Assembly: GCA_964551495.1 (NCBI GenBank)
Contig: CAZKCA010000003.1
Location: 4,535-68,534, forward strand
DNA: 64,000 nucleotides
Source of the DNA: an uncultured Candidatus Saccharibacteria bacterium
GTDB taxonomy: Bacteria; Patescibacteriota; Minisyncoccia; Phycocordibacterales; DATDWN01
Reading direction: 5' to 3'
Positions 19,325 to 47,370 of this stretch are shown one piece after another. Under the pieces are notes generated by a model. It was not told the origin of the DNA, made no database searches, and saw nothing but the letters and a program-made list of their open reading frames with translations. The translations under genes were made by a program, and so were the position numbers. Every line of letters begins with the position of its first letter. Within the stretch, counting starts at the first letter, position 1.

Positions 19325-20326
19325 TTACAACAAAGAGGGATTGTTTTTACCTAAATGTTTATAACCCAAGTCTGTTATTATTCTTCCTCTAGGTGTTCTC
19401 TCTAAGAAACCAAGTTGGATTAAGTATGGTTCATTAAACTCTTCAATAGTTGCTTGTTCTTCAGACATGGCTGCTGCCAATGTATTTAGTCCTACAGGTC
19501 CACCACCAAATTTGTTTATTATGGTTAGCATTATTTCTCTATCAGAAGGAGAAAGACCACATTCATCTATACCAAGCATAGAAAGAGCGCTAGAAACAGA
19601 TTCTTTATCTAGTTCTTTTTTGTGTACTTGAGCATAGTCTCTACATCTTTTTATAAAATAGTTGGCTGTTCTCGGGGTAAATCTGCTTCTTTTTGCAATT
19701 TCTTCACTGGCTTCAGAAGAAAGTTCTATTCCTAAAATTTTTGCAGACCTTGTAATTATTTTCTGTATCTCTTTGTTTGTATAAAAATCTAACTTGAAAA
19801 CTCCACCAGAAAACCTAGATCTCAGAGGAGAGGAGAGCATAGCTATTCTTGTGGTAGCCCCTATCAATGTAAAAGGAGGAAGTTCTAGTTGGATTGTTCT
19901 GGCACTTGGACCTTTTCCGATAATAATATCCAACGAACCAGATTCCATAGCAGGGTATAAAACTTCTTCAATGGTTTTATTTAATCTGTGTATTTCGTCT
20001 ATAAAAAGTATATCTCCAGAGGAAAGATTTGTAAGAATAGAGGCAAGGTCGCCAACTTTTTCAATGGCTGGTCCAGATGTAACTTTCATTTGAGTTCCAA
20101 TTTCTTTTGAAATAAGGTGGGCTAAGGTTGTTTTACCTAAACCTGGTGGGCCATAAAAAAGTATATGTTCTGGGGGATGCTGCCTTTCTTTTGCTGCTGT
20201 AAGTAGAATATGAAGATTATTTTTTATGTTTTCTTGACCTATATATTCATCCCATCTAGATGGTCTAAGGGTTGTATCTAAAAAAAGAGAGTCTTTTTCA
20301 ATTATATTTTCATCCAGTTTGCTCAT
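19325..20326 (-). CDS. ruvB: Holliday junction branch-migration helicase RuvB
   Basis: LRPSRWDEYIGQE... Walker A GPPGLGKTTLA, and the RuvB C-terminal winged helix. Confidence 0.95.
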   Translation of the reverse strand: MSKLDENIIEKDSLFLDTTLRPSRWDEYIGQENIKNNLHILLTAAKERQHPPEHILFYGPPGLGKTTLAHLISKEIGTQMKVTSGPAIEKVGDLASILTNLSSGDILFIDEIHRLNKTIEEVLYPAMESGSLDIIIGKGPSARTIQLELPPFTLIGATTRIAMLSSPLRSRFSGGVFKLDFYTNKEIQKIITRSAKILGIELSSEASEEIAKRSRFTPRTANYFIKRCRDYAQVHKKELDKESVSSALSMLGIDECGLSPSDREIMLTIINKFGGGPVGLNTLAAAMSEEQATIEEFNEPYLIQLGFLERTPRGRIITDLGYKHLGKNNPSLL

Positions 20327-20421
20327 ATATCGTTAATTATACTAAAAAAACTGTGGTCCTAGTAGTAGATCAAAAAATGACTACAAATTTCAATAGGTTT
20401 CAAGCTTTGCTTTGACACCCA

Positions 20422-20700
20422 TTGACATAAAAAGTTTTTTATGCTAAACTACCGATGCTGTTGAAAAAAGTAGTTTTTTTAGTATTATCATATGGTTCCA
20501 AAATATAAATCTCTAAGCAACTAAGCTTTTGGCTTACGAGTGTTTCTACGAGGACGTTCTGGTTATTACTTTGTGTAATATGCTGGAGCCATCCTTTGTA
20601 AAATACTTAGCTTTTGGTATTGAGTATTGAAAGTGTTGCTTAGAGATTTATGTCTTGGAACAAAAATCTCTCGTCTTTGGATGAGAGATTTTTGTTTCTC
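20422..20700 (+). ncRNA. candidate small structured RNA (unknown class) with a sigma70-like promoter and intrinsic terminator
   Basis: TTGACA (20422-20427), a 17-nt spacer, then TAAACT. A perfect 15-bp long-range stem joins 20507-20521 to 20634-20648. The terminator hairpin at 20661-20694 is followed by a T-run. The region lies between the ruvB start and the pilB stop and has no ORF. Confidence 0.35.
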
Positions 20701-20787
20701 TCATACATACTATTATTCACAACAACTTTTCTTTAGCAAGAGTTTTTTGCATTAGAACCTTAAAAAAAATATATGGCAACATTTATT

Positions 20788-22479
20788 TTATGATTCTAAA
20801 TCTAACACCCTCTCTATTTCTTCTATCGTTGTTACTCCAGATAGTACTTTTAATACTCCATCTTGAGATAATGTAGGAATATTTTGATCCATTGATGCTT
20901 TTTTTATTTCTCTTTCAGAAGGGTTTTCTTTAACAGCCTCTTCAATTTTTTCATCCATTAGTATTGCTTCATAAAGTCCAATCCTACCTTTAAATCCAGT
21001 GAAGTTACATTTTTCACAACCAACTTTTTCCCATTTTTTATTAACATCTAATCCTTCTAGATAAGTTTTATCTTTAAAGGTTCCCAATATTGAATCAACT
21101 ATAACTTTTTCTCTCTCTTCCAAAACAGATTCTTTTTTACAATGAGGACAAAGTTTTCTAACAAGTCTTTGGGCCATAGCCATATTTACAGCAGAAGAAA
21201 TAATTTTTGGATTAACCCCAAGATCAATAAGTCTAGGAAATGTTCCTGCGGCGTTGTTTGTGTGCAAAGTAGAAAACACCAAGTGTCCTGTTAAGGCAGA
21301 GTTTATAGCAATCTCTGCAGTTTCACCGTCTCTTATTTCACCAACCATTATTACATCAGGGTCTTGTCTTAGGGCGCTTCTAAGTCCTTCACTAAAGTTA
21401 TAGTTTTTTGCTTCGTCGGTTTGGGTCTGAACTATTCCAGGTAAATGGTATTCAATAGGATTTTCTATGGTTATTATTTTTACTTCTGTTGTGTGGACTT
21501 TTTTTAGAAATGCATAAAGTGTAGTAGTTTTACCAGAACCAGTAGGTCCTGTGTTTAAAATCATTCCATTGGGCCTTCTTATTTCTTTCATTATAATCTG
21601 AAGCAGTCTAGGATGAATTCCTAAATTTTCTAATTCAACAGAAATAGAATTAGGGTTTAAGACCCTCATAACAACTGATTCGTTGTATGCTCCCGGTATA
21701 GAAGATGTTCTTATTTCAATTTCAGTATCTTTTATTTTTATACTAAATCTCCCATCTTGTGATCCTTTAACATTTATCTTCAAATTTGAAATAAGTTTTA
21801 TACGAGAAAGTAAGAGCTTGTATGTGTTTAAATCAAACTCCAAAATATCAGTTAGGATTCCATCTAATCTATAACGAAGTCTAACGTAATCTTCTTCTGG
21901 TTCTAAATGAATATCGGAAGCGTTTACGGAAATAGCTCCAGCTAGAATAATTTCAAGAATTCTAGATATTCTGTAGCTTTTTTTCATATGCAAAACTTCT
22001 CCTATAAGGTTTTGTACATCAGTAATAGTGTTTACTTGAGATAAAAATTCATTTATTTGATCGTTTGAAATATCTAGGGCACCAGATTTTGTTTCAAATG
22101 AATAAGAAAGGTCTTTGTACCTATCCCAAACTTTGTTTAGGCTAGCATGAGAAACCATGTAAAGTTCTGGTGTATATCCTTTTAATTTAATTTTCTCTAA
22201 AAATTCTTTTGTCTTAGGGTTGTTTGGTGACAATACTCCTATGCTTGCAATTTTATTAATTTCATTAAATACAGCAAGTTGTCCTTCTCTTGATTCTATT
22301 TCGGAGATAATTCTTAACGCATCTATGTTTATAGGTGTAACAGTAAGATCTAAATAGGGGATACCATATTTACTTGCTAATATTTGAGCTAAATCTTCTT
22401 CTTCTTTTTTTCTCAGCTCATCTATTTTTTTCTTTTGCTTGTCTTCATCAAAAGTAATCATAAAAATATTGTAACACAC
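20788..22479 (-). CDS. pilB: type IV pilus assembly ATPase PilB / GspE family
   Basis: GspE N-domain, Walker A GPTGSGKTTTLYA, Asp/His boxes, and a C-terminal tetracysteine motif (CPHC...CEKC). Confidence 0.85.
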   Translation of the reverse strand: MCYNIFMITFDEDKQKKKIDELRKKEEEDLAQILASKYGIPYLDLTVTPINIDALRIISEIESREGQLAVFNEINKIASIGVLSPNNPKTKEFLEKIKLKGYTPELYMVSHASLNKVWDRYKDLSYSFETKSGALDISNDQINEFLSQVNTITDVQNLIGEVLHMKKSYRISRILEIILAGAISVNASDIHLEPEEDYVRLRYRLDGILTDILEFDLNTYKLLLSRIKLISNLKINVKGSQDGRFSIKIKDTEIEIRTSSIPGAYNESVVMRVLNPNSISVELENLGIHPRLLQIIMKEIRRPNGMILNTGPTGSGKTTTLYAFLKKVHTTEVKIITIENPIEYHLPGIVQTQTDEAKNYNFSEGLRSALRQDPDVIMVGEIRDGETAEIAINSALTGHLVFSTLHTNNAAGTFPRLIDLGVNPKIISSAVNMAMAQRLVRKLCPHCKKESVLEEREKVIVDSILGTFKDKTYLEGLDVNKKWEKVGCEKCNFTGFKGRIGLYEAILMDEKIEEAVKENPSEREIKKASMDQNIPTLSQDGVLKVLSGVTTIEEIERVLDLES

Positions 22480-30477: not shown

Positions 30478-31038
30478 TTATGAAAGTAATTTAATAGCTT
30501 TTTTGATTTTTTCTGTCAAATCTTCAGTTTCTGGTATTTTTTTCAAAACTTCTCTTACTTCTCTTTCTCCATATCCAAGAGAAGTTAGGGCCAATAGTGC
30601 ATCTACATCTTGAGATAGGGAAGAAGAAGTTTCTTGGCCAAAGTTAGAAACTTTATCTTTTAGTTCCACAACTATTTTTTCGGCGCTTTTTTTACCAAGT
30701 CCTGAAACTTTTACCAAGTGACTTATATCTCCTGATGCAATACCGTTGATCAGGTTTTTAAGAGATGCTACAGACATTATGGCCATAGCTGATTTTGGTC
30801 CTATACCTGACACAGACAAAAGAAGCTCAAAAAATTCTATTTCTTCTTTTTGACTGAAACCATAAAGATCTAGGGCGTTTTCTCTTACGGCTAAATAAGT
30901 CCAAAAGGAATAATCTTTTTCTTTTGTTGTTTGTAAATAGGCTGTATTTGTATATATTTTGTATCCAACTCCAGAGACGTCTAGTATTACGTATTTTGGA
31001 TCGGTATGTATTATTTTGCCAGACAAGTGTCCTATCAT
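30478..31038 (-). CDS. ruvA: Holliday junction DNA helicase RuvA
   Basis: MIGHLSGKIIHTDPKYVILDVSGVGYKI is the RuvA N-terminus, with HhH motifs (GIGPKSAMAI, GLGKKSAEKI). Confidence 0.9.
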   Translation of the reverse strand: MIGHLSGKIIHTDPKYVILDVSGVGYKIYTNTAYLQTTKEKDYSFWTYLAVRENALDLYGFSQKEEIEFFELLLSVSGIGPKSAMAIMSVASLKNLINGIASGDISHLVKVSGLGKKSAEKIVVELKDKVSNFGQETSSSLSQDVDALLALTSLGYGEREVREVLKKIPETEDLTEKIKKAIKLLS

Positions 31039-33071: not shown

Positions 33072-34325
33072 TTATCTTATTTTAGTTATGTCTCTTGGAT
33101 AAAAAATGTCTAGAGTCCATTCAAATGCTATATGAAATCTTTTTTGCCAAGAAAGAAATTTGAATAAATAAACGGTTCTCCATATCCACCATGCAATTTT
33201 TCCACTTATTACCACAGAGAAAACTTCTCCAGTAGCATACCATTGACCCAAAGAAACCAATGTTCCTTTTGATTTGTATATAAAGTTTTTTAGTTTTTTA
33301 TTTTTTATTGTAGCTATTATATTTTTGGCAACAAATTCTGCTTCGGCTACTGCTACTTGAGCAAGCATTGGAGGAGGAGGAACATTTTCTCCTTGGTTTA
33401 CACATGCGGTATCACCTAGAACAAAAACATCAGAAATGCCAATCATCCTGAGAAAAGAATCTGTTTCCATTCTTCCGCCTAAAAGACTTGGTTCATGTTC
33501 TATGTATTTTGGTGGCACAGGTGTTACACCAGTTGCCCAAATTATTGTACTAGCGGATATAGAATTACCATCATCAAAAACTATTTCCTGTGGTTTTACA
33601 GAAGAAACTTTTTTAGACATCATAAGAGTTATTCCCATTTTCTGTAATCTTTGGGTGGCTATTGTTTGAATTTTTTTATTAAAAGGCCTAAGTATTGTGT
33701 CTCCTGTATCTACCAAGCAAACAGAAATGTCTTTTACATGGTATCTTTTCTCACCTTTGTAGTATCGATTTTTTATTTCTCCTGCAAACTCTGCTATTTC
33801 AGAAACAGTTTCTACTCCAGTGGGGCCTCCACCTACCACAACAAAAGTTAAAAGTTTTTTTCTCTCTTCTTCATTTTTAGACAAAGTAGCCTTCTCAAAA
33901 GCATCTATTATTTGGGATCTTATTTTTACAGCGTCATCTAGATTTTTAAGACCAAAGGTGTTTTCTTTGGCACCTTCTATTCCATAATAATTAGTTTCAG
34001 CTCCGGTAGCCAAAACAAGATAGTCGTATTTTATCTCACAATTTTCTGTGGAAATCTTTTTATCTTTTGGGTTAATTGATAAAACAGTGTCTTGATATAT
34101 TGTGATTCCGCTATTTTTAAAAATTTCTCTTATTGGTTCAGAAACAGAAGTTGGTCTCAGTCCTCCAGTAGCCACTTCGTGAAGTAGTGGGGTAAATAGA
34201 AAATAATTTGTTTTATTAATAAGTGTTACATCTATTTTATTTTTCTTAACAAAAGGAGCCAAATGTCTTGCTGTATAAAGCCCTCCAAATCCTGCTCCGA
34301 CTATAACTATATGTGGTTTTGCCAT
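33072..34325 (-). CDS. ndh: type II NADH dehydrogenase (NDH-2) / FAD-dependent pyridine nucleotide-disulfide oxidoreductase
   Basis: Two Rossmann dinucleotide motifs (HIVIVGAGFGGLY and VVVGGGPTGVE) in a 417-aa protein. Confidence 0.75.
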   Translation of the reverse strand: MAKPHIVIVGAGFGGLYTARHLAPFVKKNKIDVTLINKTNYFLFTPLLHEVATGGLRPTSVSEPIREIFKNSGITIYQDTVLSINPKDKKISTENCEIKYDYLVLATGAETNYYGIEGAKENTFGLKNLDDAVKIRSQIIDAFEKATLSKNEEERKKLLTFVVVGGGPTGVETVSEIAEFAGEIKNRYYKGEKRYHVKDISVCLVDTGDTILRPFNKKIQTIATQRLQKMGITLMMSKKVSSVKPQEIVFDDGNSISASTIIWATGVTPVPPKYIEHEPSLLGGRMETDSFLRMIGISDVFVLGDTACVNQGENVPPPPMLAQVAVAEAEFVAKNIIATIKNKKLKNFIYKSKGTLVSLGQWYATGEVFSVVISGKIAWWIWRTVYLFKFLSWQKRFHIAFEWTLDIFYPRDITKIR

Positions 34326-34705
34326 AATCCTAATTATAACTTATGGGGCTATAATCGGAAGGGGAAAAGAAAAAACACCTGAAGGTGTTTTTTGCGGAGG
34401 AGGTGAGATTCTCCCTCGACTCAAATACTCGCCGTCTCTCGTATTTGGTCTGGGCACCGACTCACAACCCATTGCTCTCGATGGGTGCCCGCTCTGTCGT
34501 TCGAATCTCACCTCCTCATTTAGACAAACAAAAAATTCCTAATACCTCAATCGGTATTAGGAATTTCCGTTGCGGTGTACTCGGGTATGGTACCCCACAC
34601 TCCAAGCCTTGTAAGGCTATTTTAGCGCATTTGAGATGAGAAGAAAAAGGTTTGTGGGTCGGGTCTCTTTTCTGAGCATGAGACATCTAAGGGGGTTAGT
34701 GAGCT

Positions 34706-35479
34706 GTGCCCACAAATGCCAACAAATGCCAATTTTTTGATATAATAAAAAACATGACAGTCGGCGAATTGGTATATCAAACAGCAATCAAAGAGGGATA
34801 CAGCCCAACTTTTGCAGAAGGGCTTATTTCACCGTTGAATAATGCGGTAGAGGCGTACCAAAAAGCTTTTGAATATATAAGGGAACCCCTCAAGACGGTC
34901 AGTTCGGTAATCGAATCTGTACGACCTCAAATGGAAGCTATGGCAAAATTGCCTCTTCCTTCAATACCACAGATAACAATGCCGGCACTTCCTGAAACTT
35001 TTGACGAGGAGGATGGTTATTTCATGCCCGTATTAACACGACCGGTTCAGGAGGTTCGGATTGTGAACCCCGAGGACATTGTCGTCGCACCAGCGAGACA
35101 AAACCATAAATATGTAACTGCCTCATATCAACTCCCTGGTAATGCTAAATGGGAATCCCTCGACATCCAGTTCGTCGATGGGCATTTCGTCAGGGTATCG
35201 TATCCAAAAATGGAACCAAAGAAATTCGACTTCAAAGACATGGGATTTCTCAACACGAAGACGAACCGCCCCGACCGCAAGTGGGAGTTACTCAGGGAAA
35301 TGGCCGATAACGGTGGTGCGTTAGCCAACGATAAGTGGGATGGGCGGTATAGTAGGAACATCAAGTACGACCTAAATGTTCAACTCAGAGAGTTCTTCGG
35401 TATGAATGAAAACCCGATCCCTCATTACACTAAGAAGAATGGGTACTGGGCGAAATTTACACTACGAGGAGACAGATAG
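34706..35479 (+). CDS. hypothetical protein (island cargo)
   Basis: 257-aa ORF with island-like codon usage. Confidence 0.45.
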   Translation: MPTNANKCQFFDIIKNMTVGELVYQTAIKEGYSPTFAEGLISPLNNAVEAYQKAFEYIREPLKTVSSVIESVRPQMEAMAKLPLPSIPQITMPALPETFDEEDGYFMPVLTRPVQEVRIVNPEDIVVAPARQNHKYVTASYQLPGNAKWESLDIQFVDGHFVRVSYPKMEPKKFDFKDMGFLNTKTNRPDRKWELLREMADNGGALANDKWDGRYSRNIKYDLNVQLREFFGMNENPIPHYTKKNGYWAKFTLRGDR

Positions 35480-35655
35480 TCATTTCAACTGAGATGACGA
35501 AACAAAGACCCTTAGCTGGAAACAGCAAAGGGTCTTTTGTATTAAGGATATTTTTGGTCACAGTTCCTGAAAGTCAAAAGAAAATTGTCATTTTGTCATT
35601 CAATGACGAATAAGGGTAGAAGAGCTTAATAAAACCCTCTTCTGACATTAACCCT

Positions 35656-36951
35656 ATGGCAAAACAAAAGATCATATGGTCGCCAACCACTCGCAAGCTC
35701 GGCGACTTGATCAAAAACGGGTATAACCCACGCTCGTTAAGCGAGAATGAACGCAGGGACTTGGAGAAGTCCGTGAAAGAGTTCGGAACGGTTGTCCCTA
35801 TCGTCCTCAACATCGGCTCGCGAGCCAACACCATCATCGGCGGCGAACAGCGGGTCAAGGTATACGCCGACCTCGGTATTGAGGAGGTCGAATGTATGAT
35901 ACCTTCCCGAGAGCTAACGCTCAGTGAAGAACGAGAACTTAACCTCCGCCTCAACAAGAATACTGGCTCTTGGAATGAAGAGCTTCTCAAAGATTTCGAC
36001 ATGAACGTACTGCTCGATGTCGGCTTTGGTGACGAGGAGCTTCAGAACCTCTTCGACGACGTCGATGTAGTCGATGACGATTTCAATATAGAGAAAGCAC
36101 TCAAGGATACGATCACGCCAAAAGTGAAGTCGGGAGAAATCTGGGAACTCGGTAAGCATCGTCTTCTTGTCGGCGACTCGACTGACAAGGAATCGGTGGA
36201 GAGACTTATGAACGGAGACTTAGCGGACATCGTGTACTGCGATCCTCCCTACAACATTGGTCTCGACTATTCCAAGGGAGTTGGCAACAAAGAAAAGTAT
36301 CAAGGTTCATATTCCGGTAAGGACGACTCCAAGAAGGACAGTGAGTACATGGAATTCTTGGACAAGAGCATGGAGGTGGCAAAAAGCATAAGCAAGAAAG
36401 ACGCCCATCTATTCTACTGGTGCGATTCTTCATACATTGGGGTGGTGCAGAGCTTGTATGCAAAGCACAAGGTTGATGCGAAGCGTGTCTGCCTGTGGCT
36501 TAAGAATAATCAAAATCCTACGCACAAAATCGCCTTCAATAAAGTGTATGAGCCGTGTGTATACGGAACGACTGGCAAACCGTATCTCAACCAGGGGCTA
36601 AATAACGTAAACGAAATTCTCAACCAGGAAGTAACCACCGGCAATCAGGTGCATGACGAGATATTAGACATGATCGACATCTGGATCGAGAAGCGAGACA
36701 ACGCTCAGTCATACCAGCACCCTACTCAAAAACCTGTAACCCTGAATGAGAAACCGTTCAAACGATGCAGTGCTCCACTTCACATTGTCTATAGCGGATT
36801 TGCCGGAAGCGGCAGTGACCTCATTGCGGCAGAAGAACTGAATCGCGTATGGCGAGGTGTCGAGGTTGATCTCATCTTCGCGACCATCGTTATCGACCGA
36901 TGGGAGAAATTTACCAATCTTAAGGCAAAGAAAATCTATGGAAATAACTAA
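35656..36951 (+). CDS. ParB-like nuclease domain fused to a DNA amino-methyltransferase (N6-adenine or N4-cytosine)
   Basis: N-terminal ParB/Srx-like region (NGYNPRSL...VVPIVLN) and C-terminal MTase motif IV (IVYCDPPYN). This is a phage-typical ParB-MTase fusion. Confidence 0.8.
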   Translation: MAKQKIIWSPTTRKLGDLIKNGYNPRSLSENERRDLEKSVKEFGTVVPIVLNIGSRANTIIGGEQRVKVYADLGIEEVECMIPSRELTLSEERELNLRLNKNTGSWNEELLKDFDMNVLLDVGFGDEELQNLFDDVDVVDDDFNIEKALKDTITPKVKSGEIWELGKHRLLVGDSTDKESVERLMNGDLADIVYCDPPYNIGLDYSKGVGNKEKYQGSYSGKDDSKKDSEYMEFLDKSMEVAKSISKKDAHLFYWCDSSYIGVVQSLYAKHKVDAKRVCLWLKNNQNPTHKIAFNKVYEPCVYGTTGKPYLNQGLNNVNEILNQEVTTGNQVHDEILDMIDIWIEKRDNAQSYQHPTQKPVTLNEKPFKRCSAPLHIVYSGFAGSGSDLIAAEELNRVWRGVEVDLIFATIVIDRWEKFTNLKAKKIYGNN

Positions 36952-37687
36952 AGGAGACATATTCAAGGTCGGCGATCACACTATCGCGTGCGGTGATTCG
37001 CTTGATAGAGCCTTTGTCAGCAGGGTCATCGGGTCAAGTAAAGTACGGGCGGTCATCACCGACCCTCCTTATGGCGTTGCGTATGTTGAGAACAAGAAAG
37101 GCATATCGAAGCTCGGTGTAAAAGACGAAAAAGCAATCGTGGGCGACCATCTCCAAAGTGAAGATGAGTACGAGGAATTTACTCGCAAGTACCTTGGAAT
37201 GGTCGTGCCCTATCTTGAGGAATACAACGCGGTTTACATCTTTAATGCCGACCCAATGTTTCCGAGTCTTCGATCAGGTATGAAGTCTGCAGGCTTCTAC
37301 TATAGCCAAATGATCATCTGGCTCAAAAACCAACCTGTCATGAGTCGAAAGGATTACCTTTCGCTTTATGAACTCATCGCCTACGGCTGGTTCGGCAAGC
37401 ACAAGATGGAACGATCAAAAGCAAAGAACGTGATCTACTATCCACGACCGACACGATCAAGACTGCATCCGACGCAAAAACCCGTGGGACTTTTGCGAAA
37501 GATTATCCCTAACTCAACGAAGGTCGGCGACATTGTCTATGACCCCTTCCTTGGAAGCGGGTCGATCGCTGTTGCGTGTGAACACTTAGGTCGAAAGTGT
37601 ATCGGCATCGAGCTTGATGAGGCGTATGTGGTGGCGTCACTCAAAAGGCTTGAGAAGCTCACCGGCGCAAAGGCGGTGAAAGTATGA
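36938..37687 (+). CDS. DNA amino-methyltransferase (second, adjacent)
   Basis: Motif IV VITDPPYGVAYV and a SAM-binding DPFLGSGS segment. The ATG at 36938 overlaps the upstream MTase by 14 nt. Confidence 0.8.
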   Translation: MEITKGDIFKVGDHTIACGDSLDRAFVSRVIGSSKVRAVITDPPYGVAYVENKKGISKLGVKDEKAIVGDHLQSEDEYEEFTRKYLGMVVPYLEEYNAVYIFNADPMFPSLRSGMKSAGFYYSQMIIWLKNQPVMSRKDYLSLYELIAYGWFGKHKMERSKAKNVIYYPRPTRSRLHPTQKPVGLLRKIIPNSTKVGDIVYDPFLGSGSIAVACEHLGRKCIGIELDEAYVVASLKRLEKLTGAKAVKV

Positions 37688-37691
37688 GTGT

Positions 37692-38066
37692 ATGCAAGAA
37701 GAAGATTTTTCCAAGGATCCGTATAAAAAACAGATCTACGAAACCTACGCTCTTTGGAAGTCTCTTCCCTCATTTCTTAAAGGACAGCCGAGGGTGGCGC
37801 TTGAAAAGTTTGGCATTGAGGAAGAAGCGGTCTTTGAGCTCTTATCAGTAAAGACTCAACTTGATTTTTCCAAGAAGTATGTGGTCGACGTCGGTACGCT
37901 TACTGACTGGAACAAGCGACTTGAGAGGGACGGGATAAGCAAAAACCTAAATGTGTGGGCGCGCAAGCTCACACCGAATGTCATCTTCGCCCTCTACAAA
38001 AACATCATCAAGAGTGGTCGAGCCCACGAGGTACGTGCATGGTTTGAGATCGTAGAAAATCACTAA
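37692..38066 (+). CDS. hypothetical protein (island cargo)
   Basis: 124-aa ORF co-directional with and tightly linked to the MTases. Confidence 0.4.
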   Translation: MQEEDFSKDPYKKQIYETYALWKSLPSFLKGQPRVALEKFGIEEEAVFELLSVKTQLDFSKKYVVDVGTLTDWNKRLERDGISKNLNVWARKLTPNVIFALYKNIIKSGRAHEVRAWFEIVENH

Positions 38067-38068
38067 AT

Positions 38069-38263
38069 ATGGAACCTATAAATTTAGCAGAAATAAATCA
38101 CATTCTTTCGGACACCCTCCGCAAGGTGTTGAACAAAGAGATATCGCACAAGCAGGCATCTATGATTGCCAGACTTGCTTCTACTCTTTCCAAAAACATC
38201 GTGAATACAGAATTGAAGGAACGGGTCGAATTCCTTGAAAACGCACTACGAAGAAACAAGTAA
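38069..38263 (+). CDS. small hypothetical protein
   Basis: 64-aa ORF that overlaps the next gene. Confidence 0.3.
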   Translation: MEPINLAEINHILSDTLRKVLNKEISHKQASMIARLASTLSKNIVNTELKERVEFLENALRRNK

Positions 38264-39761
38264 TATGAAAAATCTCAGTAACATTTTAAGGAGGTCAAAC
38301 ATAACGCCATTTGAGCGAGTGATGACGCTTGTTCGTAACGATGCTCACAAAGAAAAAACTGGCAAAGGCCTGCTGTCAGAATCCGATGTGTATACACTAA
38401 CTCAAGGATGGAATGGGGATACTTCGGAAATAAAGGAATACAACAAATACATAAACATCGCTCGGCTAAAAAGCTCCATGTATATGGATGCCCAAATGTT
38501 CCTCTACAGAGCAGAATTGTCACTTCTACGAAACCAAAGGGTACTGGATACCTTCCTCCCTCGTGTAAGGATGATCAATGAGCTGACAGACCACCCATTT
38601 GCAAAAGACATCCCAGTTGAAGAGAGTGTGCGATTTCTTACACAACATACGCATATAAGGTACGAGAAGGTATTACACATATATACCTTTCACAAACTCC
38701 CTAAGGAAATACAGAGCGACCTACTTCTCTTGGACGAAGAAATCGCGAGTGATGAAAAATATTTAGGAGATCAGGTTTTTCTCTATGAGCTATTTGGTGA
38801 CGGTAATTCGCTAAGCAAGCAGAACAAAGATTTAATAATCACCAACATCTACTCTCGTATGTATTACGAAGGCGTTAAGAAAATCAAAAATAGTACATCG
38901 GAAAAAGATGGCTTTCTGCTCCACCCCTTCTTTGCTGAACTGCCAATCAAAGATTTGTTCCAGAAATTGGTGGATGATGAGCATATTGCATCCGACAAAA
39001 CGGATGATGACAGGGAAGAAGGGATCTTGTCTCTTGTTGAAGAATACGCAAGAAACAAAAATATGAGTATTGAAAGAGTTATTAAAGAAAAGTTGTCACA
39101 ATGGATCGATGAAGGATTGTTCGTCAATGCATACACTCCACTTTTTATGAGCGAACAATTCGACACATGGGGTGGCAATACTAAGAAGAGCCACAAAGAG
39201 TTGTTCGCGATTTGGTATGCAGAACTTCAAAAATCTAAGCTGTATTTTGCAGATCTTTTTAGCGCAAAGAAGCTAGAAAAAAGCACCTTTGAGAAAGAGT
39301 TTTTAGGTGTGCCAAAAAAGATAGAAGTGCTGACTGGAACCAGTTTGTATGCTTGTAAAGAAAAAATTGATTTTGTGGAAGAATACAAGAAGCAAATTAA
39401 ATGTCTTTTGCCAATCGCTAATATATTTCTTTTTATAAAGAAATATGCAACGCCAACTAAAAACTTTAAGACGCTGTGCGAGTTTAAAAAATTGGCTCAA
39501 AAAATATCGTCAATGTTTGATATTGATATGACAGAAAAGTATACAGAGTTCATTAATTCATATCAGGAAGAAGTTGCATTTCTCAACCTAAGCTCAAGCA
39601 GACTCGCAGACACGGCAACAGAACATCTGTACACTCAAGAGTCCCTGCAATATGTCATCGATATTGATGAGCGTTGTTTTGCCTTTGATCTCGAGGAAGA
39701 GGGCGAGACAGCAACTATCGCGCAGATGTACTCCGAAGAATTTAAAAAGCTTGGAGCATGA
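38235..39761 (+). CDS. large hypothetical protein (508 aa, island cargo)
   Basis: Long ORF with no recognisable motifs. Confidence 0.5.
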   Translation: MKTHYEETSNMKNLSNILRRSNITPFERVMTLVRNDAHKEKTGKGLLSESDVYTLTQGWNGDTSEIKEYNKYINIARLKSSMYMDAQMFLYRAELSLLRNQRVLDTFLPRVRMINELTDHPFAKDIPVEESVRFLTQHTHIRYEKVLHIYTFHKLPKEIQSDLLLLDEEIASDEKYLGDQVFLYELFGDGNSLSKQNKDLIITNIYSRMYYEGVKKIKNSTSEKDGFLLHPFFAELPIKDLFQKLVDDEHIASDKTDDDREEGILSLVEEYARNKNMSIERVIKEKLSQWIDEGLFVNAYTPLFMSEQFDTWGGNTKKSHKELFAIWYAELQKSKLYFADLFSAKKLEKSTFEKEFLGVPKKIEVLTGTSLYACKEKIDFVEEYKKQIKCLLPIANIFLFIKKYATPTKNFKTLCEFKKLAQKISSMFDIDMTEKYTEFINSYQEEVAFLNLSSSRLADTATEHLYTQESLQYVIDIDERCFAFDLEEEGETATIAQMYSEEFKKLGA

Positions 39762-39983
39762 AAATATTGTTGGCCATAGTAAATAATTCGGGTCACTTTT
39801 TATCCTTGACAAACCAGTAATTTATTGCTATACTACTCAAATAGTTCTTTGTAATGGATCAGTGTAGTTAAGACGAGCTTTTTGAGCCTTATTTTAGGGC
39901 CTAAAAAGCTTGTCTCAACTACGGGACTAGTCGAGCCGAAGCGTTCTTCGGTAAATGCCCATAAGGCAGAAGGAGATAACGTC

Positions 39984-40874
39984 ATGCAGACGATTACTCA
40001 GGCAACTGCCGGTCAGATCAAGCAGATCAACCGGTTCGGAAACGACGCCATCGAGAAGGTTCTCGGTGAGCTCGGACTCGACAACCCTGGCGCCCAGCGC
40101 GTCATCGAACACGGCGACGAATTCGCCGAGGCCATCCGCACGGCCGCCCTCGCCTCGCTCAAGGACCTGTCGGTCTCCGACAAGTTCAAGGACGAGGAGG
40201 TGGAGTCGAGCTACGGCTACCTCTCTGGCTACACGAAGCCCAAGTCGATCACGGAGCAGTGCAATATCCTGCGCCAGATCTTCCCGGGCATCGGGTTCGC
40301 CGACGAGAAGCTCGCCGAGCGCGAAGTGCCGCAGCACGCCGAGGGGTGGTTCGCCATCCCGAAGTGGCAGACGGTCGCTCCGACCTACACCGAAGCGGTC
40401 CAGAAGGTGCTCGACGCGGTGAAGTCGGCTCGTAACGGGAAGTTCTACAACTACCGTGACGGGCAGATCAACAACTCGCGTCTGCGCCAGACGGCCAAGA
40501 CGGCGTCGGTGTTCCAGAAGCTCGGCAACGAGCAGAAGGATCACGACATCCTCGTGGTGGCCGCCCAGTTCGGCATCCGCCATCGGGGACGTTCTGTCCG
40601 CCGTGCTCGTGAGGTCTTCGCGGCCAACGAGTTCGGACTCGGCGCATTCGCCATCGGCATCATGATCCTGACCCACCAGGAACGGCTCATGAACTATAAC
40701 GACCTCTGGATCGACTGCTCGGGTGACGAGTTTGATGATCCGGATGCCGATGTCCGCTTCGATCTCGCCCCGTGCTTCGACTTCAGCGACGGCGGGGTCG
40801 AGTTCGGCGCGTACTGGTTCGGCTATGCCAGCGGCCACTGCGGTTCCGCGTCGGCTTTCGTTCCGCAGAACTGA
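39984..40874 (+). CDS. DGR target (variable) protein, with the variable region at the extreme C-terminus
   Basis: The start at 39984 follows an AAGGAG RBS. The gene is about 62% GC. Its last 131 nt before the stop form the VR. Confidence 0.8.
   Translation: MQTITQATAGQIKQINRFGNDAIEKVLGELGLDNPGAQRVIEHGDEFAEAIRTAALASLKDLSVSDKFKDEEVESSYGYLSGYTKPKSITEQCNILRQIFPGIGFADEKLAEREVPQHAEGWFAIPKWQTVAPTYTEAVQKVLDAVKSARNGKFYNYRDGQINNSRLRQTAKTASVFQKLGNEQKDHDILVVAAQFGIRHRGRSVRRAREVFAANEFGLGAFAIGIMILTHQERLMNYNDLWIDCSGDEFDDPDADVRFDLAPCFDFSDGGVEFGAYWFGYASGHCGSASAFVPQN
40738..40868 (+). repeat. DGR variable region (VR)
   Basis: 131-nt ungapped match to 41282-41412 with 17 mismatches, every one at an adenine of the TR copy. 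Confidence 0.9.
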
Positions 40875-40942
40875 TCCTTGATGCTCGAACTCTTGAGTCT
40901 TTTGAATCCTTTCTTTTGATTCTTGAGTTCGCGGCAAATTTT

Positions 40943-40972
40943 CGGGGTTATCCACACGTGTGGGTAACCCCG
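40943..40972 (+). other. GC-rich stem-loop downstream of the VR (candidate DGR homing hairpin or target-gene terminator)
   Basis: CGGGGTTATCCACACGTGTGGGTAACCCCG forms a roughly 14-bp stem with one mismatch, followed by a T-run. Confidence 0.5.
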
Positions 40973-41281
40973 ATTTCTTTTTATACAGAAAATATTTTTG
41001 ATATACTTATACATGAGTCTAGGCTCATGCACGGTCGTTCAAGGATTGCCGTCGCCGAACTCTTTCTCTTTGTTCTCATTAAGAGAAAACGACCAGGGTC
41101 TTCCCGATTACGATTTGGAAGAGAGCGTCGCGATGAGGAGATACTGCTTGTCTTTGTTTAAGACAGACCATTAAGCCTATATGGCGGGTGCTGTCAGATA
41201 AAATTCAGGAGCGAGATCGCACCTTGTTTCCAACAAGGAATACTTTCAAGCTCTGGTGGCTCGGATGAGCAAAGACGAATT

Positions 41282-41412
41282 ATCCGGATGCCGATGTCCG
41301 CTTCGATCACGCCCCGTACTTCAACTTCAACGACGGCAAGGTCAAGTTCGACACGAACTGGTTCGACAATGCCAACGACAACTACGGTTCCGCGTCGGCT
41401 TTCGTTCCGAAG
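41282..41412 (+). repeat. DGR template region (TR)
   Basis: Intergenic copy of the VR in which every VR/TR difference is A in this copy. It lies between the target gene and avd/RT. Confidence 0.9.
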
Positions 41413-41455
41413 TCTCTCCACTTCACAAAGAGCATCCATACGGATGCTCTTTGTC

Positions 41456-41809
41456 TTATCGAGAAGTACTAGATGACCTAATCCATCCACCAAGCATGCG
41501 GCCGATTTCATCGATCATTTCTTGGAGTGTGGTGTATTTCTTGTTATCAAGTGACTTTGTTTCTTTCATTAGACGAATAAAAAAACGAAGAGTGTTTAAC
41601 TTGATACTGGCCCTTTCCAAAATTACAGTCTTATTACCACTTTTCGAATATCCTGCCTCGAGAAAATATTCGATGACATCGACAATCAAATTTTCACTTC
41701 GTTCGTAGACAGTGAACCTTTCTGCTTTAGGAATTAACTTACGATGTTCTTGAAATGTTTTATACAGTTCATACGACTTTTTAATAATAGGGATATCAAT
41801 TTCATTCAT
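41456..41809 (-). CDS. avd: Avd-like accessory variability determinant (four-helix-bundle family)
   Basis: 117-aa basic helical protein with four-helix-bundle family features (...ERFTVYERSENLIVDVIEYF...EMIDEIGRMLGGWIRS), adjacent to the TR and RT. Confidence 0.65.
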   Translation of the reverse strand: MNEIDIPIIKKSYELYKTFQEHRKLIPKAERFTVYERSENLIVDVIEYFLEAGYSKSGNKTVILERASIKLNTLRFFIRLMKETKSLDNKKYTTLQEMIDEIGRMLGGWIRSSSTSR

Positions 41810-42854
41810 GCGAGTTTATACAAAGTTATTTGATAAAATAATTAACGCCGAGAATCTCTTTTCGGCGTGGGATGAGTTCAAGCTCGGGAAGAGAAACAAA
41901 TCCGACGTGCTTGTTTTTGAAAAGAATCTTGAGCAGAATATTTTTGCCTTGCATAGAGAATTAGTAAGTAAGGCATATCGGCATGGAGCGTATAGCAACT
42001 TCTATATTTATGATCCGAAACTCCGACATATTCATAAAGCGACGGTTCGAGACAGAGTGTTGCATCATGCAATTTTTCAGATACTCAATCCAATTTTTGA
42101 ACCAACTTTTATATCCCATTCTTTTTCCTGCCGCGTCGGAAAAGGAACTCATAAAGGCGTTCATGTTTTGGACATAATGCTTCGTAAGGTCTCGAAGAAT
42201 TACACTCAAACAGCGTATGCACTTAAATGTGATGTCAGAAAGTTTTTTGATAGTGTTGACCACACTATCTTGATCAAGCTTCTGCAAAGAAAGATGAAAG
42301 ACCTTGGGGCTTTGTGGCTTATGGAGGAAATAATCGAGAGTTTTGCCGGAGAGTTTTCCGATTTGTTTACCCGAAGAGGGCTTCCTATTGGTAATCTGAC
42401 ATCGCAACTGTTCGCCAATGTCTACATGAATGAGTTTGATCAGTTTATGAAAAAAGAACTGAAAATTAAAAATTATGTTCGCTACACTGATGATTTTGTT
42501 GTTGCATCTGATAACGAAAATTTCTTGAAAGACCTTGTCCCTAAAATCCAAGACTTCCTTCACAATCATCTCAACCTTGAGTTGCATCCAAGCAAGGTCA
42601 CCATAGGTACATACCGACGTGGCATTGATTTTCTCGGCTACGTTTCTTTTCCTCACTACCGTACATTGCGCAAACGAACCGAGAAAAGAATGCTTCGCAA
42701 GCTGGATGAGAAAATCGAGTTGTTTAAACAAGGAGAGATCGACGAGGAAAGATTGAAGCAAACACTTCAGTCTTACCTGGGAGTCTTGAGTCATGCTACC
42801 GCTCTCAGATTGAGCCGAGATTTCAGCAATCGAATATTGTTTAGGAGAACATGA
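41808..42854 (+). CDS. DGR-type reverse transcriptase
   Basis: RT motifs 1-7 including the DGR hallmark IGNLTSQ and the catalytic YTDD (RYTDDFVV). The N-terminus LFDKIINAENLFSAWDEFKLGKRNK is typical of DGR RTs. Confidence 0.9.
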   Translation: MRVYTKLFDKIINAENLFSAWDEFKLGKRNKSDVLVFEKNLEQNIFALHRELVSKAYRHGAYSNFYIYDPKLRHIHKATVRDRVLHHAIFQILNPIFEPTFISHSFSCRVGKGTHKGVHVLDIMLRKVSKNYTQTAYALKCDVRKFFDSVDHTILIKLLQRKMKDLGALWLMEEIIESFAGEFSDLFTRRGLPIGNLTSQLFANVYMNEFDQFMKKELKIKNYVRYTDDFVVASDNENFLKDLVPKIQDFLHNHLNLELHPSKVTIGTYRRGIDFLGYVSFPHYRTLRKRTEKRMLRKLDEKIELFKQGEIDEERLKQTLQSYLGVLSHATALRLSRDFSNRILFRRT

Positions 42855-42902
42855 GCGAAAGAAGGTAAACATAGTAACAATAAAAACTGCCTTATTCTGC
42901 GC

Positions 42903-43763
42903 CTAAAACTTGATCGCCTCGTAATAATTATTCCGGTCATCGATCCTACTCTCTGACTTGAGGAGCGTCGGTAGATCACGGTGGTTAAAGTTGCTCAAGT
43001 TTATCTTGTTAAAAAGTGGCCGTGCGATTGAATAGACAATCGCAGTGCCGTCCTTCACATTGCCGTACTGGTCTTTAACCGGGAGCTGGGACCAGATAAT
43101 AATGTCTCCAATCGTTGGATCGAGCGGGAAAAGTGCTTTGGCGATTTTGAAGGCTTCACCATGCATCGTGCCTTTTTGAAGGTTGGTTGTAAGATTTTCA
43201 TCAGCATTTATTTTTATGAGCACTCCAACAACTGGTTCTTCGCTTTTGTACCCATACTCAGTCAACATGGACGGTTTATATGGATCAAGAGTCGTTTCAA
43301 CAACTCTTGGCTTCTTCATATTTGTCTCCGAACCAAGCGAAGTATTAATGGTGTCTCTAATCCTTTCTTCCAAAGTTTTAGGTTTGGTGACCACCTCCTT
43401 TATTGAGTCACTAGTCGTTTGCGCATTTTCCTGCTTTTGAGCCTGAGATTCCAAATCATTAGAAGCAACTTTCTGGGATGATTTGGTATCCATTGTTGTT
43501 CCAGCAATAACAAGGAACAGGATCACAATTCCTATTTTTATTGGTCGACTGATAGGCATTCGAATCTTACTCATCACAAACTGACGTGTAGGTTTGAGAA
43601 TCATCACGGCGGCTAGTAGCAGGAAAAGCCCCGGGATGAAATCCGAGAACAGGGATACAAATCCGGTCACAGCAAGCAGTACTCCTATAACCCAGCTAGT
43701 AATTCCGAAGGATTTCTTTTTGGTCTGACCCTCTAAAGACGCTTCTTTGTTTTCCATAGGCAA
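42903..43763 (-). CDS. membrane-anchored protein (hypothetical)
   Basis: Two N-terminal TM helices followed by a soluble domain. Confidence 0.45.
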   Translation of the reverse strand: MPMENKEASLEGQTKKKSFGITSWVIGVLLAVTGFVSLFSDFIPGLFLLLAAVMILKPTRQFVMSKIRMPISRPIKIGIVILFLVIAGTTMDTKSSQKVASNDLESQAQKQENAQTTSDSIKEVVTKPKTLEERIRDTINTSLGSETNMKKPRVVETTLDPYKPSMLTEYGYKSEEPVVGVLIKINADENLTTNLQKGTMHGEAFKIAKALFPLDPTIGDIIIWSQLPVKDQYGNVKDGTAIVYSIARPLFNKINLSNFNHRDLPTLLKSESRIDDRNNYYEAIKF

Positions 43764-43857
43764 ATAAATTATTTGAATAATGTCTCGTACCTTAGCTTCT
43801 ATTCGAGGCTTTGCGAAGCTCGAGTTACCAACAGCTCTTTTGTGAGGGAAATTGGGT

Positions 43858-44949
43858 TCATTTGTTGTAGGTATAACTCTGGCGAACCAAAGGAATGGCT
43901 TTCTCTAGGTCTGCCTCGCTCTCAATCTTTACCTCATAGTCTCCGTTGCCCCAATGACCTATGGGCTTGGGTTTGGTGAGGTCGCGAGCGATATTTTCTG
44001 GATCATCGAGGTGTCCGCTCGGCACGTTCAAAAAGATTTTTAGTGAATCGCGAAGCACTACCACGTCACAGAAATTAGTGGTGAGCTTGTACGCTATATA
44101 TTTTGCTTTGGCTTCCTCAATAATTGATTCATCTAGAGTGGAGATCTGCTCCTTGAGAGAAGAGAATAATCTTTGTGCGTCTGGACTCGCAGATCTTACA
44201 TGATCATCAACGGTATAGTGGATTTTATCTTTGAATACGCGTTTCTGTTTTTCTCCCTGCTCAAATACCTCCGATGTTGAGATCTTCACTTTACGCTGGA
44301 CTTCCGGTTCAACGAGAAGCAGGTCGTGGTCATATAACTGATATCGAAGCAACTCAATATTCATCGGCAGCAGATCGGCAGTATCCAAATCAAACTTGTT
44401 GTAGCTTTCAGCAACGCAGATCACTCGTGGCGATGCCCAGTCAATCTCGATATCAATTTCCTTTCTTCGTACCAACGCCTCGAAATCCGCCTTATGATCC
44501 AAAAGCCAGCGGAGATATGACAGACCTTGGTTGATAACACTATCGTTTTGACCCTTCTTGTATTCGATGATCACCGGCGACCCATTGTTGTCTATACCTA
44601 GACTATCTATTCTTCCGCCGAAGCTAGTGGAGTATTCGGTAGCCAAAAATTTGATATTCAAAATCTCATCCAAATTTTTCTCGAAGAGTTTTTGTATGTC
44701 TTTTTCTAGTCCCACCTTCGTTGGAGGGACTTTCGTTGCAGTTTGATTGTGAGTAATAAAAATGGCCATGAGGTTCATGGCGCGGGGTTGGTGCATATAC
44801 ACTAAGCCCCACGCTAGCTTTAGGTCTTGCGACCCCATACAAGTTTCCCTGTATGGCCCGATGAAGAGTCGCTGAACGTGGGGTTCAGTATCTTCATCGG
44901 GACTTTGGGCCATGCCCGCCGGAAATCCGGACGAGTTTAGGCCGCTCAT
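43858..44949 (-). CDS. PD-(D/E)xK nuclease-like protein (DUF-type, possible restriction/defence-related)
   Basis: The segment GGRIDSLGIDNNGSPVIIEYKKG fits a D...EYK nuclease core. About 360 aa. Adjacent to the recombinase. Confidence 0.4.
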   Translation of the reverse strand: MSGLNSSGFPAGMAQSPDEDTEPHVQRLFIGPYRETCMGSQDLKLAWGLVYMHQPRAMNLMAIFITHNQTATKVPPTKVGLEKDIQKLFEKNLDEILNIKFLATEYSTSFGGRIDSLGIDNNGSPVIIEYKKGQNDSVINQGLSYLRWLLDHKADFEALVRRKEIDIEIDWASPRVICVAESYNKFDLDTADLLPMNIELLRYQLYDHDLLLVEPEVQRKVKISTSEVFEQGEKQKRVFKDKIHYTVDDHVRSASPDAQRLFSSLKEQISTLDESIIEEAKAKYIAYKLTTNFCDVVVLRDSLKIFLNVPSGHLDDPENIARDLTKPKPIGHWGNGDYEVKIESEADLEKAIPLVRQSYTYNK

Positions 44950-44995
44950 ATTCAGTTGTACTTTCTCAGAATATCAAAAATAGCACCATTAAACA

Positions 44996-46429: not shown

Positions 46430-46480
46430 TAACGATAAATATATATTGACAAACGATATGCGATGAATTAGGATAGAACT

Positions 46481-46984
46481 ATGAAATTATCATCAACAAT
46501 GTTTCTGCAAATAGTGATCTTGCTCATAGGTCTTGGTGCTCTTGCCTTCCTGCTTATGATGCCCCGCCTTGAAGGCGTAAACGCAGGTGTCACCACGCTT
46601 TATCAAATATACTTTGATGACCCATTCTTGATATTCGTATATGCGGGTTCTATTCCATTCTTTGTCGCCCTCTATCAAGCCTTCAAGGTGTTCGGATATG
46701 TCGGACAAAACAAGACGTTCTCCGAGGCGGCGGTAGGAGCGTTGCGAAAGATAAAATACTGCGCGTTCATCACTGCGGGTGCAATCATCGCCGTAGACGC
46801 TTTCCTCATGATACACACGCGTCTGTATCCCGAAGTCGGCGCGGTAGATGGTCCCGAGGGCGCTGTGATGCTCGGACTCATCGCAACATTCATTTCCGTC
46901 GTCATCGGCACTGCGGCGGCAATACTTGAACGGACTCTGCAGAACGCCGTAGAGCTAAAGTCCGAGAACGACCTAACCGTATAA
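46481..46984 (+). CDS. DUF2975-like membrane protein
   Basis: Four-TM protein immediately upstream of a small XRE HTH regulator, which is the known YozG pairing. Confidence 0.5.
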   Translation: MKLSSTMFLQIVILLIGLGALAFLLMMPRLEGVNAGVTTLYQIYFDDPFLIFVYAGSIPFFVALYQAFKVFGYVGQNKTFSEAAVGALRKIKYCAFITAGAIIAVDAFLMIHTRLYPEVGAVDGPEGAVMLGLIATFISVVIGTAAAILERTLQNAVELKSENDLTV

Positions 46985-46989
46985 CCACC

Positions 46990-47193
46990 ATGTCTATCAT
47001 CATCAACATAGATGTCATGCTCGCGAAGCGGAAGATGAGCGTTACTGAACTGGCAGAGAAAGTTGGAATCACCATGGCAAATATTTCCGTGCTAAAAAAT
47101 GGAAAAGCTAGAGCTATCCGATTAGCAACCCTAGAAGCGATTTGCAAAGCCTTGGAATGTCAGCCTGGAGATATTTTGGAGTACAAAAAGTAG
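46990..47193 (+). CDS. XRE-family helix-turn-helix transcriptional regulator (YozG-like)
   Basis: 67-aa protein with the HTH LAEKVGITMANISVLKNGKARAIRLATLEAICKAL. Confidence 0.7.
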   Translation: MSIIINIDVMLAKRKMSVTELAEKVGITMANISVLKNGKARAIRLATLEAICKALECQPGDILEYKK

Positions 47194-47370
47194 AAATTAA
47201 ATGATATGCTTGCCGTACAAACCTGCGCGATATACTACGAGTGTCTCGCGCTTCCCGATACGGCACAGGAATACGACCGACACGCCTGTGGCGCCACAAG
47301 AAAACAGCGTCCTTTACAGGGCGCTGTTTTGCTTATCTATTGAGCCGAATTTTGATAAGATGAAGATGCA

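Follow-up and report, generated by a model that had tools for sequence, protein, structure and literature searches.

A new family of structured small RNAs beside ruvB in Paceibacteria

Orphan motifs such as LOOT RNA (RF03000) and others of Weinberg et al. 2017 (PMC5737381) are stand-alone, intergenic RNAs with a covarying fold and with their own promoter and terminator, each in a single lineage mostly known from metagenomes. In these respects they resemble the element described here, which lies at 20495–20661 (+) of a 64,000-nucleotide (nt) stretch of contig CAZKCA010000003.1 (assembly GCA_964551495.1, titled as an uncultured Candidatus Saccharibacteria bacterium); this whole analysed stretch is termed the window, and all positions refer to it. 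Other described systems that bear on the element are 6S RNA genes, which are similar to it in size and have helical arms, a housekeeping promoter and a processed leader, and riboswitches, where the P1 stem of an ordinary aptamer is a few base pairs (bp) long. Patescibacteria, or the candidate phyla radiation (CPR), account for much of the diversity of bacteria and have genomes of less than 1 Mb; to our knowledge almost no non-coding RNAs have been described in them beyond the universal ones. The element is a real, well-supported new family of structured small RNA (sRNA), encoded by a stand-alone gene in Paceibacteria. Its host spacer, 20327–20787, is flanked by two − strand genes according to the list of open reading frames and Pfam: ruvB, divergent from the RNA, and a convergent gene for a PilB-like ATPase.

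A covarying fold with four helices

The segment 20440–20710 (+) folded at −98.8 kcal/mol, compared to −52.9 ± 4.0 kcal/mol for 200 dinucleotide shuffles (z = −11.4), none of which did as well; the − strand gave a weaker fold (−73.3 kcal/mol, z = −8.9). The core of the RNA is about 165 nt long, and consists of a closing stem, P1 (24–27 bp), that encloses helices P2, P3 and P4. The two P1 arms, at 20495–20521 (+) with the core sequence AAAUCUCUAAGCAAC and at 20635–20661 (+) beginning GUUGCUUAGAGAUUUAU, were found by inverted-repeat search and by folding. They are 27 nt long and 93% complementary, with a perfect run of 17 bp at 20505–20521 and 20635–20651, and this 17-mer is unique within the window. 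The original prediction, made from the sequence of the spacer, had described a perfect 15-bp closing stem. The stem is real, but it is perfect over 17 bp, not 15, and 20507–20521 pairs with 20635–20649, one position off from where the 3′ arm had been placed.

P2 (20522–20536, +) is a small facultative hairpin, UAAGCU-UUU-GGCUUA. P3 (20538–20608, +) is a long irregular hairpin in which a conserved AGGAC (20551–20555) pairs with AUCCU (20591–20595), and CUGG (20559–20562) pairs with CUGG (20583–20586) to give tandem U-G and G-U pairs beside an invariant G-C. P4 (20610–20634, +) is a hairpin with a conserved CUUUU/AAAGU base, and lies directly against the P1 3′ arm. In their 5′ halves, P2 and P4 are near-identical direct repeats (20520–20532 and 20605–20617), ACTAAGCTTTTGG and ACTTAGCTTTTGG; this repeat is specific to the window, being present neither in locus L001 nor in other relatives (L numbers denote the loci of relatives).

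Relatives were first gathered through RuvB, whose best matches had 64–78% identity and came from metagenome-assembled genomes (MAGs) labeled Paceibacteria, Minisyncoccia, Nomurabacteria, Zambryskibacteria, Ryanbacteria, Kaiserbacteria or Sungiibacteriota. No identical RuvB protein is on record, and RuvC of the window was matched exactly on just two contigs, each under 2 kb. Searching with the window element by nhmmer and blastn gave, for each of L001–L020, a match directly ahead of ruvB on the other strand, with the same architecture. A 17-sequence alignment analyzed with RNAalifold had compensatory changes in 22 of 34 pairs, and the covariance model built on it (R1) scored the window at 140 bits and found 21 genome loci. 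Metagenomes were scanned with a pattern taken from P1, TCTCTAAGYRA-N90-120-TYRYTTAGAGA, which gave at least 120 stretches; the full element, as judged by nhmmer and two covariance models, was on at least ~110 metagenome contigs. Among GTDB species-level Paceibacteria genomes, 22 gave strong matches to the RNA and five more gave weak ones. Altogether the RNA is known from more than 130 genomes and metagenome contigs of Paceibacteria.

Some of the source records bear taxonomic titles at odds with their content. The record of L024 is titled "Nanoarchaeia archaeon" yet has a bacterial ruvB-yebC-ruvC with 76% identity to the window, and L008, L009, L012, L013, L015, L017, L018 and L028 also carry labels that look wrong or generic. 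Several MAGs titled "Candidatus Saccharibacteria" and one titled "Bdellovibrionales" hold the Paceibacteria-type locus with the RNA.

A second covariance model (R2) describes 65 pairs (P1, P2, P3a–d and P4) over an alignment of 89 sequences. Standard pairs filled 86.4% of the cells of this alignment, but only 38–50% when pairing partners were slid by 1–3 columns. Changes on both sides were found in 56 of the 65 pairs, in 1055 cells; a covariation analysis of homologous spacers had been proposed with the original prediction. The covariation score was 0.47, whereas slid partners gave 0.10 and shuffles 0.18, and none of 500 shuffles attained any of the observed covariation measures.

Each helix has independent support in this alignment. 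P1, with 23 modeled pairs, was paired in 96% of cells, and 18 of its pairs had compensatory changes; its median length over 94 relatives was 25 bp, typically 25–26 bp, around a conserved core of CUCUAAG/CUUAGAG. It also covaries among the genomes retrieved through ruvB: L014 has AAGGAA/UCCCUU, L016 and L022 have G-C replacements, and the stem of L013 differs wholly in sequence. All five modeled pairs of P2 covary; this helix was paired in 66–72% of cells and is missing in L018, L019 and L020. P3 had compensatory changes in 23 of its 27 pairs, and the two pairs of its tandem motif were U-G in 75 and G-U in 73 of 88 sequences, respectively, with the adjacent G-C in all 88; the motif is retained in the distant relatives L015, L058 and L063. 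In P4, all 10 pairs had compensatory changes, with 88% pairing.

The same alignment identifies the transcribed strand. Within the modeled helices there were 329 G-U but only 66 A-C combinations (73 vs 20 in the genomes found by ruvB only), and at one P1 pair, 52 sequences have G-C and 35 have G-U. This roughly 5:1 excess of G-U over A-C places the RNA on the + strand of the window. Nearly every column with a conservation of at least 90% is base-paired, and the junctions and loops are variable.

We compared the locus with known RNA families. With Rfam 15 (4227 families) there was no match for the RNA at gathering score in the 64-kb window, none at E ≤ 10 on 20300–20800, and none at E ≤ 5 in 16 relatives. 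The hits at low thresholds were scattered chance matches to hairpin- or terminator-like models (Yfr10, PyrR and miRNAs). Models of SRP, RNase P, tmRNA, 5S, Y RNA and riboswitches likewise had no match at E ≤ 10 on the spacer, ARAGORN called no tmRNA at the locus, and no conserved GNAR loop was found in the apical loops of P3, which vary. Searches of the CPR/Patescibacteria literature (6S, structured RNA, RNA motif, ruvB) turned up no account of the RNA, and the text of Weinberg et al. 2017 (PMC5737381) is silent on ruvB, pilB and OD1. The Rfam scan that accompanied the original prediction as a proposal thus brought no reclassification. Of the two identities then offered, that of a novel sRNA fits: the gene has its own promoter and terminator and matches no known RNA family.

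Promoters, terminator and gene neighborhood

As had been predicted, a sigma70-like promoter precedes the RNA. This distal promoter (20422–20450, +) has a −35 of TTGACA at 20422–20427, a 17-nt spacer ending in TG, and a −10 of TAAACT at 20445–20450, matching the consensus at 10 of 12 positions; its predicted start is at about 20457. A second promoter-like site, TTGAAA-16-TATTAT, lies proximally at 20461–20488 (+). Its motif suggests a promoter function, with a predicted start at about 20495, where the closing stem begins. The two are tandem duplicates, within a direct repeat (20422–20440 and 20461–20479) of 79% identity. The distal promoter is one of three TTGACA-N14-16-TGNTANNNT sites in the 64-kb window, where 0.21 would be expected. 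Among relatives, 71 of 89 loci have TTGACA-N16-18-TAnnnT on the RNA strand at a distance of 15–117 nt ahead of P1, compared to five of 89 on the control strand; 67 of these 71 promoters have a perfect −35, and 70 have the extended TG.

Downstream of P1 is a terminator hairpin with a U-run (20660–20700, readable on both strands). It too had been predicted, with coordinates that we correct to 20660–20675 paired with 20680–20695 (16–17 bp, with a loop of 4). The 3′ arm runs into TTTTTGTTT, and the pair probability of the hairpin is 0.999. A simple consensus terminator scan missed it, apparently because the T-run falls inside the maximal stem. Read on the − strand, the same sequence is a hairpin followed by UUUUUGUU, and it probably serves as a bidirectional terminator that ends the pilB transcript as well. 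A separate terminator is not a conserved element, and about half of the relatives lack one: in 46 of 94 a U-run of at least four T lies within 14 nt of the 3′ end of the model, and 22 more have one within 60 nt, in most cases preceded, like that of the window, by a separate hairpin. Judging from these signals, a primary transcript of ~205–245 nt is plausible.

The gene upstream of the RNA is ruvB (19325–20326, −; Pfam RuvB_N, AAA_lid_4 and RuvB_C), the first gene in the order ruvB-yebC-ruvC; ruvA (30529–31038, −) is ~10 kb away from these. Downstream is a gene for a pilB/gspE-like type II/IV secretion ATPase (20788–22479, −; Pfam T2SSE, 397 bits). The window has no + strand gene downstream of the RNA, the next gene being this convergent one, in keeping with the earlier statement that no gene follows on the RNA strand.

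A putative −10 of ruvB (TAGTATAAT) lies at 20336–20344 (−), only ~10 nt ahead of the ATG at 20326, which implies that the ruvB mRNA would be nearly leaderless. This −10 was read directly off the sequence; the spacer of the window yielded no extended −10 for ruvB. A 17-nt block of the ruvB −10 region, AGTTTTTTTAGTAT[A/T]AT, recurs in inverted orientation at 20472–20488 (+), in the proximal promoter of the RNA. In the window the promoters of ruvB and of the RNA are back-to-back, with the ruvB −10 about 80 nt upstream of the RNA −35.

We surveyed the neighborhood of 133 loci. The gene ruvB was upstream on the opposite strand in 122, nearly all of those with enough upstream flank, and the gap between the RNA and ruvB was 37–490 nt in 121 of the 122. 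A convergent pilB was downstream in 109 loci. Distant relatives (L015, L027, L028, L054, L058 and L063), whose RuvB and PilB have 55–68% and 42–55% identity, keep both synteny and architecture. The element was not present in L021 and L035, which belong to lineages where ruvA directly precedes ruvB.

Exceptions to the usual arrangement are informative about the unit. In L161, a toxin-antitoxin pair and a methyltransferase gene separate the RNA from the upstream region, and the RNA is still there. In L107, L115, L141, L191, L193, L199 and others, unrelated genes on either strand stand between the RNA and pilB, again with the RNA kept. These inserted genes are heterogeneous (lipoprotein-like, dapB/dapA, kinase-like, LOG-like and others). 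That the RNA persists when its neighbors are displaced marks it as a unit of its own, and not as the leader of a fixed downstream gene.

Promoter arrangement differs among loci. In L002, L003, L006, L089, L096, L118 and similar loci, the ruvB −10 (TGCTATAAT) is 13–22 nt from P1, between the promoter and the body of the RNA; in L006 the ruvB start codon even overlaps the −35 of the RNA (TTGACAT being the reverse complement of ATGTCAA). For the 29 loci where both promoters were detected, 21 have the ruvB −10 between the RNA promoter and P1, with promoters facing and 5′ ends overlapping, and eight have back-to-back promoters. In L095, L100, L107, L115, L129, L133, L135 and L154, the ruvB −10 is followed by 2–3 direct repeats of TGTTGATA at ~10–11 nt spacing, which read TATCAACA on the RNA strand and are not in the window. 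These ruvB-leader repeats may be an operator or an RNA-binding site.

Elsewhere in the window, at 34000–48000, is a GC-rich island (GC 0.39–0.51, compared to ~0.30 elsewhere) that looks like an integrated mobile or defense element. It contains genes for a ParB-like DNA methylase (35656–36951), a reverse transcriptase (41808–42854, the sole one in the window), a DUF5655 protein (43858–44949, −) and a large serine recombinase (44996–46429). Rfam places LOOT RNA (RF03000, 81 bits) at 44822–44943 (−), between the DUF5655 protein and the serine recombinase. This placement links the orphan LOOT RNA with a serine-recombinase element of a CPR genome.

Possible roles of the RNA

The explanation that we favor, by a modest degree of belief, is a stand-alone sRNA gene, new to Rfam and distributed across Paceibacteria/Minisyncoccia (Patescibacteria, CPR), whose product acts in trans as a protein-bound structural RNA. 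A near-consensus sigma70 promoter would drive a + strand transcript, the core of which folds into a P1 of ~25 bp carrying a tight junction of the facultative P2, the long irregular P3, and P4. The transcript would end at a U-run that immediately follows P1 or, in the window, at a separate hairpin and U-run shared with the convergent pilB. The 5′ leader varies from ~5 to ~105 nt and probably undergoes trimming, for which RNase III cleavage of the long perfect P1 would be a plausible means. The product would most likely be a stable, abundant, protein-bound RNA that acts in trans, rather than a base-pairing sRNA, a riboswitch or a ribozyme. It is helix geometry and paired motifs that are conserved, with no single-stranded seeds or pockets, which points to a protein-bound structural RNA; and the gene survives the displacement of either neighbor, which points to action in trans.

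Several considerations weigh against this explanation. The near-invariant place beside ruvB could mean a role in cis, and in one subgroup the promoter and leader of the RNA overlap the 5′ untranslated region of ruvB. Protein binding is argued from negative evidence, i.e., the absence of conserved unpaired nucleotides. The ends and abundance of the transcript are predictions from promoter and terminator motifs. Conservation of P1 is inflated in the metagenome set, since those loci were retrieved by the P1 pattern.

The main rival is a role in cis at the pilB–ruvB junction, which we consider unlikely: a strongly promoted antisense transcript and its giant hairpin would insulate the two genes, and the act of transcription, not the RNA molecule, would tune ruvB-yebC-ruvC. 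Its means would be a bidirectional pilB terminator together with promoter competition or 5′ antisense overlap with ruvB. The constancy of a divergent, adjacent ruvB in 122 loci and of a convergent pilB in 109 is as such a role would have it, as are the many loci in which the pilB stop is 12–25 nt from P1 with no separate terminator, the facing promoters in 21 of 29 loci, and the overlap of the ruvB ATG with the RNA −35 in L006. Yet neither insulation nor interference has need of P2–P4, which covary with a G-U bias specific to the + strand, and the promoter arrangement is not conserved, being back-to-back in eight of the 29 loci as in the window. Moreover the RNA persists with neither partner fixed (L161 on one side; L107, L115, L141, L191 and L199 on the other), and pilB of the window has a terminator of its own ahead of the element. 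The 6S-like identity of the original prediction lives on in a functional 6S analogue, to which we give a low probability. Here a ~165-nt RNA would bind the sigma70 holoenzyme, with P1 and P3 as its arms, and a junction with a breathable P2 and P4 standing in for the open-promoter bubble. Such an RNA would resemble 6S genes in its ~165 nt, two arms of ~25 bp, strong housekeeping promoter and processed leader; Rfam found no 6S RNA in the 64-kb window, and we found no paper on CPR 6S. As an identification, however, 6S did not hold up. There is no match to RF00013 or any other 6S family (E ≤ 10 in the window, E ≤ 5 in 16 relatives), and in place of an open bubble the center is a tight multi-helix junction whose strands are held in covarying P2 (72% paired) and P4 (88%). 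Variants without P2 leave at most two unpaired nucleotides on the 5′ side (L019), hence no template strand, and the near-perfect P1 lacks the regular bulges typical of 6S.

The switch logic put forward in the original prediction fares far worse, and we regard it as very improbable. As a riboswitch or attenuator, the 3′ arm of P1 (UAGAGAUUU) would have two alternative partners, the 5′ arm of P1 and that of the terminator, and so switch termination on or off, for example to control antisense read-through into pilB. The complementary segments do exist in the window: 20642–20653 can pair with 20660–20671 at 11 of 12 positions, although the terminator arm reads AAATCTCTC and not AAATCTCTA as had been given, and sharing the P1 3′ strand with an anti-terminator is classical OFF-switch topology. 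But the alternative helix costs +24.5 kcal/mol (−69.5 vs −94.0), making its ensemble probability ~0 while pairs of P1 and the terminator are at 0.999–1.0, and a transcript folded just as far as 20672 already has its full P1, a stem finished before the 5′ arm of the terminator is made. The alternative fold is thus energetically inaccessible, and it is also peculiar to this one genome. In the 100-nt flanks of 94 relatives, 7-mer copies of the P1 arms were no commoner than in shuffles (loci vs shuffles: 10 and 12 vs 8.5 and 9.9 downstream, 2 and 16 vs 7.9 and 12.2 upstream), and with a U-run within 14 nt of the model end in 46 of the 94, many relatives have no separate terminator to switch. A leader hairpin with a U-run between promoter and P1 was seen in six of 89 loci on the RNA strand and in eight of 89 on the control strand, i.e., unenriched. 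Unpaired junction nucleotides are not conserved, the opposite of what riboswitch aptamers and ribozymes display, and there is no fixed downstream gene to control, the inserted genes being unrelated and on either strand. The likeness of the terminator arm to P1 probably comes from local partial duplication or chance. We think it equally far-fetched that the element is not an RNA at all but a DNA inverted repeat (a miniature inverted-repeat transposable element or other mobile remnant, a protein-binding palindrome, or a cruciform) or an oversized bidirectional terminator. The 27-nt inverted arms with their conserved sequence would suit this, and the − strand also folds well (z = −8.9). The element is nonetheless single-copy at a fixed locus, with no target duplication and no occurrence in viral contigs; its arms covary instead of keeping their sequence in L013, L014, L016 and L022; and the 5:1 excess of G-U over A-C in the internal helices is explained only by a + strand RNA.

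Other candidates were set aside. A few relatives show a hairpin that could suggest a leader attenuator, yet the systematic scan was unenriched, as given above. A cis-leader of a lost downstream gene is at odds with inserted genes that are mutually unrelated and on either strand. A four-way-junction RNA that replaces RuvA was rejected because ruvA exists in the window and P2 is facultative, and a retron-like non-coding RNA because the sole reverse transcriptase gene of the window is not adjacent but in the unrelated GC-rich island. Mobile or viral origin does not agree with the single fixed locus, nor with a search of viral contigs that found no copies of the element. Recognition of G-U/G-C pairs in the manner of S15, kink-turns, and GGA motifs for CsrA are presumably misfits in geometry or sequence.

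The RNA stayed fixed beside ruvB while RuvB diverged to ~55–60% identity. A strongly promoted RNA of ~165 nt that several candidate orders of a genome-reduced lineage have retained at one locus, under heavy compensatory evolution, is likely to have an important role. We raise, as a speculation to which we give well below even credence, that it is a lineage-wide, essential-grade part of a new Paceibacteria ribonucleoprotein, perhaps a structurally new replacement of 6S or another global regulator, or an RNA functionally tied to recombination and DNA-uptake machinery (ruvB-yebC-ruvC and pilB). If so, it would be a rare instance of a housekeeping RNA gained in a radiation that is noted instead for losing genes. 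With two covariance models, ~130 members and a 65-pair structure, the family is defined well enough for submission to Rfam, for mapping of metatranscriptomes, and for use as bait for a partner. A more general lesson is that a locally convincing picture of terminator and anti-terminator can be the accident of a single genome.

Comparison with known RNAs and elements

Measured against terminating riboswitches and attenuators, the window shares the complementarity of a P1 3′ strand to a terminator 5′ strand, but has a P1 of 24–27 bp, lacks conserved pocket nucleotides, and is not followed by a gene in its own orientation. Bidirectional terminators are matched by the hairpin at 20660–20695, which reads as a terminator both ways between the RNA and the convergent pilB, and in many relatives by P1 with its U-run, which takes over the terminator role. 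Such terminators cannot, however, account for ~110 nt of covarying internal helices.

The likeness to 6S RNA (RF00013, RF01685) is one of format: both are largely paired RNAs of ~165 nt built on a pair of long helical arms, with a strong sigma70 promoter and a leader whose variability implies processing. Unlike 6S RNA, the RNA has a tight three- or four-way junction instead of a large single-stranded central bubble, and it has neither periodic bulges in P1 nor a covariance-model match. Bacterial Y RNA, or YrlA, also has its 5′ and 3′ ends in a long conserved stem under a multi-helix junction, a design typical of protein-bound scaffolds. Our RNA differs from it in having no Rfam match and no conserved T-like or D-like loops, and in having ruvB and pilB as neighbors, not rsr (Ro). 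From the orphan motifs with which we began it is set apart by being locked, unusually, to the pilB–ruvB spacer and by the unusual length of its near-perfect closing stem of ~25 bp.

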